This document shows positions 2,128 to 7,191 of a stretch of DNA of 64,000 nt, in pieces. The notes under the pieces are model-generated. The model was not told the DNA's origin and searched no databases. It saw only the letters and a program-made list of their open reading frames with translations. The DNA is from an uncultured Clostridia bacterium. Its GTDB lineage: Bacteria; Bacillota; Clostridia; Oscillospirales; Ruminococcaceae. The stretch spans positions 1,876-65,875 of the forward strand of contig CANRKB010000010.1 of the NCBI GenBank assembly GCA_947631115.1. Direction: 5' to 3'. The translations under genes and the position numbers were made by a program. Position 1 is the first letter of the stretch; every line of letters begins with the position of its first letter.

Positions 2128-2973
2128 ATGGACTTAACGAATATAAACATCATCAAGGGGCTTTTCGAGCGTCACGGCTTTTCATTCTCCAAGGCACTCG
2201 GGCAGAATTTCCTGATAAATCCCGCGGTATGCCCGAAAATTGCGGAAATGGGCGGGTGTAAAGAGGGCGTCTGCGCTATTGAGATAGGAACGGGCGTGGG
2301 CGTTCTTACGCAAGAACTTGCAAAGCGGTGCGACAAGGTAATAGCGATAGAGCTTGACGAAAGACTGAAACCTGTTTTAGCCGAAACGCTCGCGGAGTTT
2401 GACAATGTTGAAATAATTTTCGCGGACGTTATGCAGACCGACCTTAATGAAATTGTCGGAAAATTCGGCGGGAAAGACGTTGTAGTATGCGCAAATCTGC
2501 CGTATTATATCACTTCTCCCGTGATAATGAAGATACTCGAAAGCAGGCTTCGGATAAAGTCGCTTACCGTAATGGTACAGCGCGAGGCGGGCGACAGGAT
2601 TTGCGCCGCTCCCGGCACAAGGGAGAGCGGCGCGGTTTCGTATGCCGTGAGGTATTACAGCGAGCCGAAGCTGTTGTTTAGGGTCAACAGAGGGAGCTTT
2701 ATTCCGTCGCCGAATGTCGACAGCGAGGTAATAAAGCTGGAAATTACCGACAAGAACAAACTGCCGAATGATGTTGAAAAAATGCTGTTCAGGCTTATTC
2801 GCTCGGGATTTTCGCAGAGAAGAAAACAGTTATTGAACCCTCTTTCGGGGGAGCTTAAAATGTCAAAAGAGGAGCTTTGCGGAGTGTTTTCGGCTGTCGG
2901 AATAAAGCCTACGGCGCGCGCCGAGGAACTTAAGCTTGAAGATTATATAGAGCTGGCGAAAATGTTGTCTTGA
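2128..2973 (+). CDS. rsmA: 16S rRNA (adenine1518/1519-N6)-dimethyltransferase RsmA/KsgA
   Basis: 281 aa. LGQNFL motif, SAM-binding EIGTGVG, NLPYYITSP motif. Confidence 0.93.
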   Translation: MDLTNINIIKGLFERHGFSFSKALGQNFLINPAVCPKIAEMGGCKEGVCAIEIGTGVGVLTQELAKRCDKVIAIELDERLKPVLAETLAEFDNVEIIFADVMQTDLNEIVGKFGGKDVVVCANLPYYITSPVIMKILESRLRIKSLTVMVQREAGDRICAAPGTRESGAVSYAVRYYSEPKLLFRVNRGSFIPSPNVDSEVIKLEITDKNKLPNDVEKMLFRLIRSGFSQRRKQLLNPLSGELKMSKEELCGVFSAVGIKPTARAEELKLEDYIELAKMLS

Positions 2974-2974
2974 A

Positions 2975-3029
2975 TAAAAAATCCGCCATGAGCTGTGTTC
3001 CCACTAACAGCGCAAGGCGGATCTTTTTT
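2975..3029. terminator. Bidirectional hairpin terminator after rsmA
   Basis: AAAAAATCCGCC (2975-2987) ... GGCGGATCTTTTTT (3016-3029), with A-run and T-run flanks. Confidence 0.7.
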
Positions 3030-3052
3030 GCAAATATGTAGACCTCTTCTAC
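2975..3052 (-). ncRNA. Candidate small RNA 2 (degenerate paralogue of the antitoxin-like RNA)
   Basis: Perfect minus-strand TTGACA-N17-TATAAT (-35 3087-3082, -10 3064-3059). The predicted RNA starts with hairpin GUAGA-AGAGG-UCUAC and ends at the rsmA bidirectional terminator. Only weak complementarity to the toxin start region. Confidence 0.3.
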
Positions 3053-3104
3053 AGGTAAATTATATCACACTTTTTTCTTTTTGTCAATTATTTAACGACA
3101 TAAA

Positions 3105-3180
3105 AATCTGTCCCGCGTTGTACTGCAATACAGCGCGGGGCAAACTTTTTGCGGTTATGTAGATCTTTTCGGTTTTCTAC
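3105..3180 (-). ncRNA. Candidate antisense (antitoxin-like) small RNA 1
   Basis: Perfect minus-strand TTGACA-N17-TATAAT (-35 3215-3210, -10 3192-3187). The complement of 3151-3172 pairs with toxin mRNA 3314-3333 (9 + 10 bp). The complement of 3114-3140 is 27/27 complementary to the toxin terminator 3433-3459. It ends in hairpin + UUUUU. Confidence 0.5.
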
Positions 3181-3244
3181 AATTGTATTATAGCATATTA
3201 TTTTGCATTTGTCAATATTTTTTAGAAAAATTTTTAAAAAACAT

Positions 3245-3273
3245 TTGACGAAAGAAGTCGTTTGTTGTATAAT
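3245..3273 (+). promoter_or_regulatory. Sigma-A-type promoter of the small-peptide gene
   Basis: TTGACG (3245-3250), 17-nt spacer, TATAAT (3268-3273). Confidence 0.6.
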
Positions 3274-3319
3274 ATAGTTGCCGGTTCCCCGGAAGATCAG
3301 TACGGAAGGGGGTGCGGTT

Positions 3320-3403
3320 ATGAATCTTTTCGGCTTTTTGGTCTCCGTCTTAGCAAGTGTAGTGGCTTACTACATATGCAAATGGCTCGACGGAGATGAT
3401 TAA
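3320..3403 (+). CDS. 27-aa hydrophobic peptide, type I toxin candidate (Fst/Ldr-like shape)
   Basis: Too short for the ORF track. ATG 3320, TAA 3401-3403. Sequence MNLFGFLVSVLASVVAYYICKWLDGDD is one TM helix plus an acidic tail. SD GGAAGGGGG at 3304-3312. Own promoter and terminator. Confidence 0.55.
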   Translation: MNLFGFLVSVLASVVAYYICKWLDGDD

Positions 3404-3429
3404 CCGGCAGAGCCTTGGCAATAAGTCCG

Positions 3430-3467
3430 CCTCGCGTTGTACTGCAATACAGCGCGGGGTATTTTTT
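3430..3467 (+). terminator. Intrinsic terminator of the peptide gene
   Basis: CCTCGCGTTGTA-CTGCAA-TACAGCGCGGGG followed by TATTTTTT. A 27-nt core is duplicated at 3114-3140. Confidence 0.7.
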
Positions 3468-3478
3468 CGGAATTGCTC

Positions 3479-5443
3479 TTATTCCAGCTCAAACGCCCCC
3501 GTATACAGTCTATAATACTGCCCTTTCTCGGCTATCAGTTTATCATGCGAACCGCGCTCGATTATTCTGCCGTGGTCTAAAACCATTATAACGTCCGAAT
3601 TTCTGACGGTCGAAAGCCTGTGCGCAATTACAAAGACCGTTCTCCCTTTCATAAGCGCGTCCATTCCCGCCTGAACTATCGCTTCGGTGCGGGTATCTAT
3701 CGAGCTTGTCGCCTCGTCCAGTATCATAACCGGCGGGTCCGCAACCGCCGCTCTCGCTATCGAGATAAGCTGCCGCTGCCCCTGCGAAAGTCCGCTTCCG
3801 TCGCCGCGAAGTACCGTGTTATAACCCTCGGGCAGCATTCTTATAAAGGTGTCCGCATTTGCAAGCTTCGCCGCCGCTATACATTCCTCGTCCGTCGCGT
3901 CGGGTTTTCCATAGCGCAGATTGTCCATAACCGTACCCGTAAACAAATTTACGTCCTGCAATACCACGCCCAGCGAACGCCTTAAATCGCTCTTTTTTAT
4001 CTTGTTTACGTTTATCCCGTCATAGCGTATCTTTCCGTCGTCTATGTCATAGAAACGGTTTATAAGGTTCGTTATGGTCGTCTTGCCCGCGCCCGTAGCG
4101 CCGACAAACGCCACTTTCTGCCCCGGCTCGGCATAGATGTTTATATCCTGCAATACGAGCTTTTCGGGTACATATCCGAAGTCAACGTTATCCAGCACAA
4201 TGTCGCCTTTAAGCTCCTCGTATGTTACGGTGCCGTCGGCGGTATGCGGGTGTTTCCACGCCCACAAGCCCGTATGCTCGACGGTCTCGATAAGTTCGCC
4301 GTTCTCGCCGCGCTTTGCGTTTACGAGCGTTACATAGCCGTTGTCCGTTTCGCTCGGCTCGTCAATAAGCGCGAATATTCTTCCCGCGCCAGCCATTGCC
4401 ATAGCGACGGAGTTCAACTGCTGCGACACCTGACCTATAGGACCGATAAAGCTTCTCGAAAGCTGAAGGAATGAAGCAATAGCTCCGAGCGTCAGCGTAT
4501 TCACCGCAAAGCAAGCTACGTTCATAACTCCGTTTATCGCAAGATAACCGCCCACTATCGCCAGCACAACATACAGAAAATATCCCAGACAGTTGTTTAT
4601 CGGCATAAGAACGTTTGCATAAGCGTTTGCGCGGCAGGTGTTTTCGGAGAGGTCGAAGTTTCTTGTGTCAAAGCCCTCTTTCGATTTCTGTTCGCGGCAG
4701 AAGATCTTTATAACGCGCTGACCGTTTATCATCTCTTCTATATAGCCGTTCACTTTTGCCATCGAGCCTTGCTGGCGGATAAAATACGTTCCCGATTTCT
4801 TGGCGATAATCGCCGTTATGAAAAGTATTATCAGCAGGAAAACCAACACCGTCAGCGTCAGCCACAATGACAGCGAAAGCATTGAACAGAAAATCGAAAA
4901 CAGCGTTATTCCCGAAGAAATGACCTGCGGCAAAGACTGCGACAACATCTGCTGCATGGCGTCCGCGTCGTTTGTATAAAAACTCATAACGTCGCCGTGG
5001 GTGTGAGTGTCGAAGTATTTTATCGGAAGCGTCTGCATATGCGAGAACATTTCGTCGCGGATCTTTTTTAATACGCCTTGTGAAACGGTCGCCATTATCC
5101 TTGCCTGAATGAGAGAGCTTCCCGCTCCCGCAAGAAACAGCGCCGCCATGAGGATAATTGTCCTTAATAACCCCGAATAATCGGGAACGCCGCCGTTTTT
5201 ATGCACTTCTACAAGCGGAAGTATATAGTCGTCGATAAGCGTTTTTATAAACAGCGACGACGCAACGCTCGCTAAAGCGCTTACTATAATGCACACAACG
5301 ACAAGTATAAGCCTTTTTCTAAACGGCTTCATATAGCCGAAAAGCCGCTTTATGACCTTTTTGTCGAACTTCATCGGAACCCTCGCTCCGCGCGGCGGTC
5401 TGCCCTGTCTTACCGGCATTTTTTCTTCTTTCATGTCGCTCAT
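3479..5443 (-). CDS. ABC exporter, fused permease/ATPase subunit (multidrug/lipid exporter type)
   Basis: 654 aa. Six-TM N-terminal domain, Walker A GATGAGKTT, signature LSQGQRQ, Walker B ILDEATS. Start overlaps the upstream partner (ATGA). Confidence 0.9.
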   Translation of the reverse strand: MSDMKEEKMPVRQGRPPRGARVPMKFDKKVIKRLFGYMKPFRKRLILVVVCIIVSALASVASSLFIKTLIDDYILPLVEVHKNGGVPDYSGLLRTIILMAALFLAGAGSSLIQARIMATVSQGVLKKIRDEMFSHMQTLPIKYFDTHTHGDVMSFYTNDADAMQQMLSQSLPQVISSGITLFSIFCSMLSLSLWLTLTVLVFLLIILFITAIIAKKSGTYFIRQQGSMAKVNGYIEEMINGQRVIKIFCREQKSKEGFDTRNFDLSENTCRANAYANVLMPINNCLGYFLYVVLAIVGGYLAINGVMNVACFAVNTLTLGAIASFLQLSRSFIGPIGQVSQQLNSVAMAMAGAGRIFALIDEPSETDNGYVTLVNAKRGENGELIETVEHTGLWAWKHPHTADGTVTYEELKGDIVLDNVDFGYVPEKLVLQDINIYAEPGQKVAFVGATGAGKTTITNLINRFYDIDDGKIRYDGINVNKIKKSDLRRSLGVVLQDVNLFTGTVMDNLRYGKPDATDEECIAAAKLANADTFIRMLPEGYNTVLRGDGSGLSQGQRQLISIARAAVADPPVMILDEATSSIDTRTEAIVQAGMDALMKGRTVFVIAHRLSTVRNSDVIMVLDHGRIIERGSHDKLIAEKGQYYRLYTGAFELE

Positions 5444-7191
5444 TCTTCCGCCGCTCCTTTCGTCTGAGAATCGTATATCTCGCGGTAAATTCCCCCGCGC
5501 GCGTACAGCTCTTCGTGCGTTCCTATCTCGGAAATTCTGCCGTTGTCCATAATTATTATCCTGTCGGCGTCGCAGACCGACGAAACGCGCTGGGCTATGA
5601 TTATCTTTGTCGTATCGGGAATTTCCTCGCGGAAAGCCTTTCTTATCATTGCGTCGGTGTGGGTATCGACAGCCGAAGTCGAGTCGTCAAGAATAAGTAT
5701 CTTCGGCTTTTTAAGAAGCGCCCTCGCTATGCACAATCTCTGCTTCTGTCCGCCCGAAACGTTTGTTCCGCCCTGTTCAATATAGGTGTTGTATTTATCG
5801 GGGAACGTCTGAATAAATTCGTCCGCGCATGCCAGCTTGCACACCTTTTCAACTTCTTCGTCGGTTGCGTTTTCGTCGCCCCAGCGGATATTCTCTGCGA
5901 TCGTCCCCGAAAACAGCGTGTTTTTCTGAAGAACCATCGCGACGTTGTTTCTGAGCGCCTCAATGTTGTAGTCCTTTACGTTTTCCCCGCCGACAAGAAC
6001 TTCTCCCTCGTCCGCGTCGTAAAGCCTCGGTATCATTTGAACGAGCGTGGATTTTGAAGAACCCGTGCCGCCGATAATGCCGATAGTTTCGCCGCTCTTT
6101 ATCTTGAGGTCAATATCATTCAGCGCGGCTTTTTCGGAAGTCTTGAAGTATCTGAAACCTACGTTTTTAAATTCAATCGAGCCGTCCTTGACTTCAGTAA
6201 GATTGCGCTCGCCGTCGCGCAGGTCGCTCTTTTCGTTTAATACCTCGCAGACGCGGTCCGCGCTAGCCTTCGACATAGTGAGCATTACGAAGATCATCGA
6301 CAGCATCATAAGGCTCATAAGTATCTGCATTGTGTATGTAAACAGCTCCATAAGGCTGCCCGTGGTAAGTCCTAACGCCTCGTTATTGCCGCTTGCAACG
6401 ACCGCCTGCGCGCCGAGCCATGAAATGGCGATAATGCAAGTGTAAACGGAAATTTGCATAGCGGGTGCGTTGAATGCAACGGTCTTTTCGGCTTTGGTGA
6501 AGCGGTCGTAGATAAGCTTTGAAATTTTGCCGAACTTTCCTATTTCGTGATCCTCGCGGACAAAGCTCTTTACGACGCGTATTCCGCGCAGGTTTTCTTC
6601 AACAACGTTATTTAAATCGTCATAAGTCGTAAACACCTTTCTGAACATCGGGAAAGCCGTCTTGACGATAATTGCCAGCACAATAACAAGAAACGGTATT
6701 ACGCAAAGGAATATCATCGAAAGCTCTTTGCTTGCCCTGAAAGAGAATGTAAATGCGAAAATAAGCATTGCGGGCGCGCGGAAAACAATTCTCGTCAGCA
6801 TCTGAAACGACATCTGAACGTTTGTAACGTCTGTCGTAAGGCGCGTTACAAGGCTCGCGGGGGAAAACTTGTCAATGTTTGAAAAGCTGAAATTCTGGAT
6901 ATTGTAGTACATGTCGTGCCTTAAATTCCTGGAAAAATAAGACGAGGCGCGCGAAGCGGTATATCCCGCGATAACGCCGAAGCATAGCGCCGTGAGCGTT
7001 CTTATCAGAAGCTCAATTCCGTATCTTACGACCATGTCCATATTTCCGACGGTTATTCCGTCGTCAATAAGGTGCGCCATTGTGCTGGGAATCGACACCT
7101 CCACAAAGCTCTCGCAAAGTACGAAAATGGGCGTTAAAATTGCGGGCAGAAGCGCTTGCCTTACGCATTTCGCAAGTGTTTTAATCATCAT
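5440..7191 (-). CDS. ABC exporter, fused permease/ATPase subunit (heterodimer partner)
   Basis: 583 aa. Walker A GGTGSSKST, signature VSGGQKQR, Walker B ILDDSTS. Confidence 0.9.
   Translation of the reverse strand: MMIKTLAKCVRQALLPAILTPIFVLCESFVEVSIPSTMAHLIDDGITVGNMDMVVRYGIELLIRTLTALCFGVIAGYTASRASSYFSRNLRHDMYYNIQNFSFSNIDKFSPASLVTRLTTDVTNVQMSFQMLTRIVFRAPAMLIFAFTFSFRASKELSMIFLCVIPFLVIVLAIIVKTAFPMFRKVFTTYDDLNNVVEENLRGIRVVKSFVREDHEIGKFGKISKLIYDRFTKAEKTVAFNAPAMQISVYTCIIAISWLGAQAVVASGNNEALGLTTGSLMELFTYTMQILMSLMMLSMIFVMLTMSKASADRVCEVLNEKSDLRDGERNLTEVKDGSIEFKNVGFRYFKTSEKAALNDIDLKIKSGETIGIIGGTGSSKSTLVQMIPRLYDADEGEVLVGGENVKDYNIEALRNNVAMVLQKNTLFSGTIAENIRWGDENATDEEVEKVCKLACADEFIQTFPDKYNTYIEQGGTNVSGGQKQRLCIARALLKKPKILILDDSTSAVDTHTDAMIRKAFREEIPDTTKIIIAQRVSSVCDADRIIIMDNGRISEIGTHEELYARGGIYREIYDSQTKGAAEE

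Follow-up and report, generated by a model that had tools for sequence, protein, structure and literature searches.

The par/Fst locus of the Enterococcus faecalis plasmid pAD1 is a toxin-antitoxin system of type I in which the direct repeats DRa and DRb lie over the initiation region, a stem sequesters the Shine-Dalgarno (SD) sequence and complex formation begins at the terminator loops, a loop-loop initiation step that has been established biochemically (PMC7472228). Convergent promoters and a bidirectional terminator are conserved among par homologues (PMC7472228), and the Gram-positive type I families listed in T1TAdb carry an antisense RNA that is located 3' of the mRNA and overlaps it (PMC8594479). 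Our analysis of a 64,000-nucleotide (64-kb) stretch of contig CANRKB010000010.1 from an uncultured Clostridia bacterium (hereafter the window, meaning the whole stretch) identified a gene for a 27-amino-acid hydrophobic peptide and, upstream of it on the opposite strand, a gene for a small RNA (sRNA-B), which together probably make up, on the chromosome, a type I toxin-antitoxin module operating like par/Fst. Judged from the comparisons presented here, the locus is a rearranged 3'-type (par-like) system that joins the two-site logic of par to a layout of the Gram-negative style.

The likeness to par/Fst (E. faecalis pAD1; SprA1/SprA1AS, Fst-Sm/srSm) lies in a small hydrophobic peptide with a tryptophan past its helix and a charged tail, which is acidic in the window, in complementarity at the terminator stem-loops and in two direct-repeat blocks covering the start codon; the intramolecular helix that sequesters the SD in par has a possible counterpart in the mRNAs of the wider family described below. 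In contrast to par, with its convergent promoters and shared bidirectional terminator, the window places its RNA gene upstream of the toxin gene, in divergent orientation and without overlap, and gives it a terminator copy of its own, a difference that an earlier sequence-only reading of this DNA had claimed and that proved real when set against the published systems (PMC7472228, PMC8594479). The antisense RNA was predicted to be about 80 nt long, which corrects the earlier figure of about 75 nt, in comparison to about 40 nt for RNA II of pAD1 (PMC7472228) and 65-75 nt for Streptococcus pneumoniae and other par homologues (PMC2887945). An antisense gene that is 5' of the toxin gene, non-overlapping and trans-encoded is shared with TisB/IstR-1, ShoB/OhsC, ZorO/OrzO and DinQ/AgrB (PMC8594479; PMC2887945), but the toxins of these systems are unrelated to that of the window and their families are confined to Gram-negative bacteria (PMC8594479). 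A terminator-terminator contact is predicted for the window, while none was described for the Gram-negative divergent systems in the literature consulted.

As a result of repeats on the + strand, a minus-strand RNA starting from the promoter at 3215-3187 would be complementary to the toxin mRNA at its start codon, at codons 2-5 and at its terminator. Block a (TGCGGTTATG) was found at 3150-3159 and 3313-3322 and block b (ATCTTTTCGG) at 3163-3172 and 3324-3333, both as direct repeats on the + strand, and between the two blocks stand TAG in the upstream copy and a single A in the toxin mRNA, leaving a 1x3 internal loop. The duplex predicted between the 5' part of sRNA-B and the toxin start region reached -32.2 kcal/mol over 10+10+6 bp (z = -4.6 against dinucleotide shuffles), and a scan across the window ranked this start region first among the non-self targets of sRNA-B. 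The 27-mer CGCGTTGTACTGCAATACAGCGCGGGG has exactly two copies in 64 kb (3114-3140 and 3433-3459), with none expected in shuffles, and the 3' hairpin of sRNA-B is complementary to the toxin terminator at 27 of 27 positions (-65.7 kcal/mol, z = -11.5). When folded, sRNA-B showed a 12-nt recognition loop closed by a 5' stem (GUAGA/UCUAC), then an unpaired anti-start linker and, at its 3' end, a terminator hairpin whose loop is UUGCAG; a + strand terminator was also called by the scan at 3109-3142.

The sequence-only reading had postulated a perfect opposite-strand promoter upstream of the toxin, a pairing in two blocks over the start codon and codons 2-5 around a 1x3 internal loop, and a 3' hairpin matching the toxin terminator over 27/27 positions with the loops CUGCAA and UUGCAG, all of which were borne out by the promoter scan (12/12 at 3215-3187), the duplex prediction and the exact repeat, respectively. 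Its assignment of the start-region contact to the 5' hairpin loop stood for block b, which lies in that loop, and failed for block a, which lies in the single-stranded linker 3' of the hairpin. The matches might instead have been parts of a common intergenic repeat, which the same reading had named as one outcome that would overturn it; within the 64 kb this explanation is disfavoured, as the hairpin has only two copies there and the hairpins differ between loci. Our results support sRNA-B as the predicted cognate antitoxin of the window toxin, and it is the only candidate because the toxin open reading frame (ORF) and promoter are intact and the gap between the toxin terminator and the next gene is only 19 nt.

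The 27-codon ORF for a hydrophobic helix with an acidic tail was present at 3320-3403 and conserved in the family, and its own promoter, SD and hairpin/T-run terminator were all found where the sequence-only reading had placed them (Table 1). Residues 1-20 of the peptide are hydrophobic and form one helix, followed by K21-W22-L23-D24-G-D-D with the conserved tryptophan and acidic tail. Transcription was predicted to start near 3280, giving a 5' untranslated region (UTR) of about 40 nt. The toxin mRNA had a minimum free energy (MFE) of -71.3 kcal/mol, with its 5' end paired to the segment directly 3' of the stop codon, and in this MFE fold the SD region is paired elsewhere and not in an anti-SD/SD helix. 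Five promoter-like sites were counted in 651 bp in comparison to 1.7 +/- 1.2 in shuffles. Six other metagenome copies of the locus had no gene called at the toxin ORF and an intergenic region identical to that of the window; these contigs are probably of the same strain.

Table 1. Predicted features of the toxin and antisense RNA genes (positions in the window).
Feature	Position	Strand	Basis or detail
sRNA-A, regarded as a degenerate paralogue of sRNA-B	2972..3052	-	fold, repeat search, alignment
sRNA-A promoter, perfect TTGACA-N17-TATAAT with TG extension	3059..3087	-	consensus scan, 12/12; alignment
sRNA-B, predicted antitoxin (RNA II equivalent), ~80 nt	3100..3180	-	fold; same architecture in convergent relatives
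sRNA-B terminator hairpin; core 3114-3140 equals toxin terminator 3433-3459 on + strand	3109..3142	-	repeat search, fold
Anti-start segment of sRNA-B, a direct repeat of the toxin start region on + strand	3150..3176	-	repeat search, duplex energies
sRNA-B promoter, perfect TTGACA-N17-TATAAT with TG extension	3187..3215	-	consensus scan, 12/12
AT-rich palindromic spacer AATATTTTTTAGAAA / TTTTTAAAAAACATT between divergent -35 boxes of sRNA-B and toxin	3214..3245	.	inverted repeats I3, I4
Toxin promoter TTGACG-N17-TATAAT	3245..3273	+	consensus scan, 11/12
Predicted toxin mRNA (RNA I equivalent), ~190 nt: 5' UTR, SD, ORF, 3' UTR, terminator	3280..3468	+	boundaries inferred from promoter scan and fold
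SD region GGAAGGGGGTG	3305..3315	+	read from sequence; A-GG(G/A)GG-T at this position family-wide
sRNA-B target on toxin mRNA	3313..3340	+	block a 3313-3322 including AUG; block b 3324-3333, codons 2-5; then 6 bp more
Toxin ORF, 27 aa, MNLFGFLVSVLASVVAYYICKWLDGDD	3320..3403	+	translation, family conservation
Toxin terminator hairpin, loop CUGCAA, U-run	3429..3467 (hairpin 3429-3460, then ATTTTTT)	+	terminator scan; -21.3 kcal/mol

The search for relatives that the sequence-only reading had proposed revealed a large conserved family in genomes, metagenomes and plasmids. Protein searches with the 41-aa open frame from TTG 3278, which contains the 27-aa peptide, returned 36 proteins with the near-invariant core S[VI]xASVVAYYICKWLDGD, many of them called from spurious upstream starts where 'QKGG' and 'TERGG' represent the conserved SD region in translation. 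DNA collections scanned with the pattern YYICKWL(D) gave at least 599 pattern stretches and at least 561 confirmed relatives in species-representative genomes, at least 600 and at least 524 in metagenome contigs, and 156 and 90 in IMG/VR viral contigs. By these counts the peptide gene is a real and very common gene family, for which there is no Pfam, NCBIfam or Rfam model and whose core peptide motif had no match in the literature text searched. Ten residues were invariant in 58 distinct trimmed peptides (F6, S9 and Y17-Y18-I19-C20-K21-W22-L23-D24), the window toxin keeps every one of them, and variation in the nucleotide alignment occurred at third codon positions.

The main hosts of the family were Lachnospiraceae, Oscillospiraceae and other Clostridia, with further members in Dialister and Selenomonas (Negativicutes) and on Lactobacillales plasmids. 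The tblastn searches placed it on 13 plasmids, with carriers including Waltera intestinalis (5.6 kb), Mediterraneibacter gnavus (6.9 kb), Aerococcus (7.5-9 kb), Streptococcus pluranimalium pSP28 (2.4 kb) and a Ligilactobacillus salivarius megaplasmid, and the PLSDB gene tables of those 13 plasmids, which are incomplete, listed no gene under the match. The toxin allele MSIFSSFLLSVLASVVAYYICKWLDGDK recurs on contigs, roughly 5-7 kb long, that are attributed to many genera, and the Waltera plasmid has the identical allele. No family match was obtained by tblastn against GenBank phages. Members were also seen on short or metagenome-assembled contigs labelled Bifidobacterium catenulatum, Streptomyces cinnamoneus (542 bp), Bacteroidaceae and Paludibacteraceae (L011, L034, L060 and L085), which are more likely mis-binned or contaminating small plasmids than evidence of true hosts. 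At two loci (L043:2528-2644 and L047:1398-1514) the toxin ORF had a C-terminal extension (…DGDRKHININMLNK), and L047, apparently rearranged or interrupted, had an inverted 15-nt copy of the start region downstream.

The organization of the family was analysed in the best 80 loci per scan, of more than 1,100 in total, where each complete non-redundant locus was searched for a same-strand copy of its start region (-14 to +26) over 270 nt upstream and 220 nt downstream. The best copy was downstream in 107 of the 124 genome and metagenome loci, 51-104 nt (median 85) past the stop codon, and these direct repeats had a mean score of 12.5 in comparison to 6.5-6.8 for reverse-complement controls. A hairpin below -10 kcal/mol was located between the stop codon and the repeat in all 107 of these, as was an opposite-strand sigma-70-like promoter just past the repeat, which scored at least 9/12 in 105 and whose -10 box in 61 ended at a distance of exactly 10 nt from the repeat; promoters turned up in only 43 loci of the wrong-strand control, nearly all at 8/12. 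A + strand toxin promoter was present in 122/124 loci with a modal 5' UTR of 40-42 nt. The same canonical layout was observed in 53/56 viral-contig loci and in 160/180 complete loci across all collections, so that the layout of most relatives of the window toxin is that of par. Inspection of canonical loci by eye showed bidirectional terminators of the A-run/hairpin/T-run type and two repeat blocks with a short unmatched stretch between them, with L023, L167 (Waltera plasmid), L168 (Aerococcus) and L169 as examples.

Duplexes between the 5' part of each antisense RNA and its own toxin start averaged -36.0 +/- 4.6 kcal/mol in comparison to -15.4 +/- 4.8 kcal/mol for non-cognate combinations, and the cognate partner was the best of 69 in 62 of the 69 loci. 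The window pair (-32.2 kcal/mol) was compared with a mean of -10.6 kcal/mol for its RNA with other toxins. The antisense 5' region thus co-varies with its own toxin start region. The par/Fst-like two-site logic that the sequence-only reading had ascribed to a type I module here is supported by this cognate co-variation, by conservation of the family and by its canonical relatives. A mismatched pair was observed at L162:1186-1450, where the toxin start GTATCAGATGGATATAATCACATC is unmatched by the downstream repeat, which fits the Waltera-plasmid-type toxin GTGCCACAATGAGCACTTTCGTCTTTCTT, and this locus looks like a recombinant, non-cognate pair.

Structural conservation was also detected within the toxin mRNAs. 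An anti-SD/SD helix was 86% paired across 45 family mRNAs, with C-G replaced by U-A in 8, and two coding-region hairpins were 95-98% paired with compensatory changes and a covariation score exceeding all 500 shuffles and all slid registers. These hairpins (GCAAGUGUAGU/ACUACAUAUGC and CUCCGUC/GACGGAG; window 3358-3395, columns 80-128 of alignment A3, 45 mRNAs) showed compensatory changes that were synonymous, and part of the extreme peptide conservation may reflect RNA structure. The mRNA hairpins are treated as supportive evidence only, as they are located in a very conserved coding stretch. A helix between the 5' end and the post-stop segment showed visible compensatory changes and a weak preference for cognate combinations (-11.7 against -9.1 for non-cognate); RNAalifold on the MAFFT alignment missed it because the post-stop region was out of structural register, and this 5'-3' helix of the toxin mRNA is regarded as suggestive.

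An RNA gene that is upstream and divergent was found in 4/180 loci, namely the window, L041, L044 and L077, which represent two independent lineages, and in all four it stays clear of the toxin gene and has a separate hairpin at its end. Two further loci classed as divergent by the automatic rule (L089 and L173) were convergent on inspection, and par-EF0409 was discarded as a divergent precedent, since a review shows a bidirectional terminator between its RNA II and RNA I (PMC7472228). The nearest relatives of the window by identity of mRNA and 5' UTR (L063, L095, L054 and L056, all Oscillospiraceae-type) and those of L044 (L084, L051 and L010) were all convergent, indicating that relocation has occurred at least twice. 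The window RNA units align over their full length with the convergent RNA genes of L054, L095, L056 and L063, with TTGACAAA and TGnTATAAT invariant in the alignment; all begin at GUAGA and have a GUAGA/UCUAC stem around a recognition loop that varies, followed by an anti-start linker (window: ACAUAACCGCA; L054: ACACAUGUAUGCAC), an A-rich spacer and a terminator whose tail is CAGAUU. As these nearest relatives carry an RNA gene of the same architecture downstream and convergent, sRNA-B is a relocated RNA II orthologue.

Complementarity between the two terminators is automatic in the canonical layout and is not in the split layouts, because the split hairpins are separate copies. In L041, L044, L077 and L063 the stems of the toxin and RNA hairpins differ and the loop is identical: CUGCAA in L041, CUGGCAC in L044 (where the 7-nt loop is the sole shared block), CUGGCA(C) in L077 and GUGGCAC in L063. 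Retention of the loops while the stems drift speaks for selected pairing between the loops. In L044 and L077 the loop CUGGCAC contains CUGG, which fits the YUNR U-turn motif. The layout of L063 (L063:2534-2802) is convergent and non-overlapping, the toxin and RNA genes each having a terminator hairpin of their own, and this locus may be an intermediate between the canonical and divergent layouts.

In the mechanism that we propose, the + strand mRNA (about 3280-3468) would encode the 27-aa membrane peptide, presumed to be toxic in excess, and the divergently transcribed sRNA-B (about 3180-3100, minus strand) would be the antitoxin. Contact would be made by its terminator loop UUGCAG with the complementary loop CUGCAA of the toxin terminator, and its recognition loop and linker would anneal to the toxin mRNA over the start codon and codons 2-5, a pairing that would block ribosome binding and may also alter mRNA stability. 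We infer that the three promoters are active, that the peptide is toxic and that the loop binds before the start region, and the biological role of the module is likewise inferred.

Several observations weigh against this par-like interpretation. The z-score of the start-region duplex is moderate (-4.6) and one of 300 shuffles equalled the sRNA-B pairing, and the minus-strand terminator of sRNA-B, with five U's beginning 5 nt past the core stem, was missed by a simple scan. Neither a significant Pfam/NCBIfam Fst match nor, at E <= 10, any Pfam Fst-family model among the matches was returned for 58 members, and Rfam searches of the region at E <= 10 and of the whole window at gathering thresholds gave chance matches only (mir-9261, rli28). 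By inspection no YUNR U-turn motif is present in CUGCAA or UUGCAG with their closing pairs, a motif that is not present in all par homologues (PMC7472228), and the 27/27 terminator identity of the window could reflect recent duplication or gene conversion. The last two points would also be expected if repression relied on start-region pairing only and the terminator match were a passive leftover of duplication, as would the identity extending beyond the hairpin in the window (33/37 nt including 10 nt of 3' UTR) that a recent duplication would give; non-overlapping antisense RNAs 5' of the mRNA are, moreover, the arrangement of TisB/IstR-1, ShoB/OhsC, Zor/Orz and DinQ/AgrB (PMC8594479). Such single-site repression does not, however, lead one to expect diverged stems around identical loops in L041, L044, L077 and L063, a pattern unexpected under neutral drift, and complex formation in par itself starts at the terminator loops (PMC7472228). 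Since the 27/27 identity of the window also fits recent duplication, we retain single-site repression as an unlikely but not negligible explanation.

Alternatively, the locus could be the remnant of a decaying tandem array in which either the toxin gene or the RNA genes have lost expression or function. The clearly degenerate sRNA-A described below, the occurrence of the layout in 4/180 loci only and the disrupted toxin start ATG-TAG on the + strand of the sRNA-B unit all fit such a relic, but all three promoters are at or near consensus, the toxin retains every invariant residue, the sRNA-B duplex is in the cognate range, the locus is identical in the six further metagenome contigs (probably the same strain) and three loci from another lineage, themselves diverged, have kept the divergent layout, which makes a relic improbable. 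Slightly less probable again is a small membrane protein with another role, for example one that modulates the adjacent ATP-binding cassette (ABC) exporter and is tuned by the antisense RNA. The tail-to-tail placement of the ORF with two ABC_membrane/ABC_tran genes and the unclear functions of chromosomal par homologues (PMC7472228) leave room for this role, whereas the regulatory architecture is that of par and the genomic context is not conserved, with members on plasmids of 2.4-9 kb, on viral contigs and at many chromosomal sites; these scattered contexts therefore fit an autonomous addiction or stress module rather than the partner of one transporter. Against these alternatives, a module working like par/Fst is the reading that we prefer.

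Assignment of the toxin to a described family was less clear. The toxin agrees with the Ldr/Fst superfamily signature of Fozo et al., with a helix, a conserved tryptophan and a charged tail (PMC2887945). The Clostridium bolteae sequence that Fozo et al. (2010) called 'Ldr/Fst-like' may be a member of the family described here. Most family members have S-x-x-x-S where Fst has P/D/S/T-XXX-G(C) (PMC7472228). Serine is invariant at position 9 and is also found in most members at position 13, where a few have G (for example SVLAG and SVMAG), and the spacing from position 13 to W22 is nine residues. Fst and PepA1 have the same nine-residue spacing from the motif to the tryptophan. A search with Fst/Ldr profiles, which the sequence-only reading had suggested, did not detect the toxin as Fst: the best values were E = 0.17 in one of 58 members for Ldr_toxin PF13940 and E = 0.17 in two of 58 for NF033608, and a PDB sequence profile search gave no Fst or PepA1 match. 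As no curated profile matched significantly, the toxin is not filed as an Fst member and would at best be a new clade. Pfam, NCBIfam, PHROGs and PDB-sequence searches gave no significant assignment, with phrog_738 weakly matching all four peptides tested. The Clostridioides difficile type I toxin model NF047374 matched weakly over the N-terminal 16-20 residues but consistently in 55/58 members (best E = 1.4e-4); every score was far below the curated cut-off of 60 bits, that of the window peptide being 19.5 bits (E = 9.6e-4). The C. difficile type I toxins (CD0956.2/RCd10 and relatives) resemble the family in their occurrence in Clostridia and on mobile elements and in a weakly similar hydrophobic N-terminus, but are 30-56 aa long with a lysine-rich tail, and in the characterized pairs the toxin and antitoxin genes overlap and are convergent (PMC6563280).

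The origin of the window layout was considered together with traces of duplication in its vicinity. A second degenerate copy of the RNA gene with a promoter at 3059-3087, as the sequence-only reading had it, is real and belongs to a tandem unit of about 125 bp, the sRNA-A unit (hairpin, repeat-like segment and promoter) lying at 2977-3093. The 5' stem of sRNA-A is as in sRNA-B with the recognition loop cut to 5 nt, and it has a good terminator (hairpin 2977-3027), which differs from that of sRNA-B and which rsmA shares at its end. Paired with the toxin start region, sRNA-A gave -16.6 to -21.8 kcal/mol, close to the non-cognate mean of -15 to -17 kcal/mol, and no outstanding target was found in a scan of the 64-kb window. 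A role for sRNA-A as second antitoxin or as regulator of another window gene was rejected on account of this near-non-cognate duplex and the lack of any other target standing out, and it is regarded as a decayed paralogue of sRNA-B that might conceivably act as an orphan antitoxin. The dinQ locus, where the paralogous RNA genes agrA and agrB stand in tandem and one of them provides the active antitoxin, resembles the sRNA-A/sRNA-B arrangement.

The duplicated stretch around the sRNA-B terminator reaches 10 nt into the 3' UTR (33/37 over 3104-3140 against 3423-3459), and a broken toxin start, ATG-TAG-ATC-TTT-TCG, can still be read on the + strand of the sRNA-B unit. After this ATG-TAG, a shifted frame on the + strand at 3157-3236 (VDLFGFLQLYY…) is similar to the N-terminus of the toxin (tblastn E = 0.077) and seems to be what is left of a duplicated toxin 5' end. 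Tandem toxin genes within about 0.5-1.5 kb, each with its own antisense unit, were found at L010, L064, L072, L074 and L079. The window layout would have arisen from a tandem array of such canonical units (toxin, terminator and opposite-strand RNA gene) through loss of the upstream toxin and the downstream RNA gene, leaving a terminator copy, an RNA gene and a toxin. This tandem-array origin is the most likely one, as it fits the repeat extended into the 3' UTR, the 19-nt gap to the next gene and the broken ATG-TAG start.

The comparisons support a view of the window module as a rare, rearranged member of a large, unannotated and otherwise canonical par-like family. We lean somewhat towards the wider proposition that a par-type antitoxin RNA is a self-contained, trans-acting module that can be moved away from its toxin gene, after which selection alone would keep the terminator loop and start region matched. 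If so, the window, the L041/L044/L077 lineage and L063 would serve as natural compensatory-mutation experiments for a mechanism that begins with kissing loops, since the separate terminator copies are free to decay and complementarity kept in the loops only would be comparative evidence for loop-loop initiation. On this view the window would further hold the first type I system of Gram-positive bacteria whose antitoxin is 5'-located and does not overlap, as part of a major, unannotated family of toxins on the plasmids and chromosomes of gut Firmicutes. A head-to-head, non-overlapping version would mean that the 3'-overlapping layout of Gram-positive type I families is not obligatory, and annotation tools that assume 3' overlap would miss it. 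Our searches expose a very abundant toxin family in gut Lachnospiraceae, Oscillospiraceae and Negativicutes and on Lactobacillales plasmids; its presence on small cryptic plasmids of gut anaerobes suggests that knowledge of the addiction module could aid plasmid curing and vector design.

The surroundings of the module provided a few further observations. The palindrome between the divergent -35 boxes (3214-3245) could serve as an UP element or bind a regulator. On the minus strand, 3479-7191 is taken up by two neighbouring ABC exporter genes (ABC_membrane and ABC_tran; 654 and 583 aa), convergent with the toxin gene, and the 19 nt from the toxin terminator are counted to the annotated span starting at 3479. 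An ABC transporter genetically linked to Fst-EF0409 affects recovery from that toxin (PMC7472228), and the presence of an exporter beside the window toxin is probably a coincidence in this respect. The toxin terminator probably ends both the toxin and the ABC exporter transcription units.

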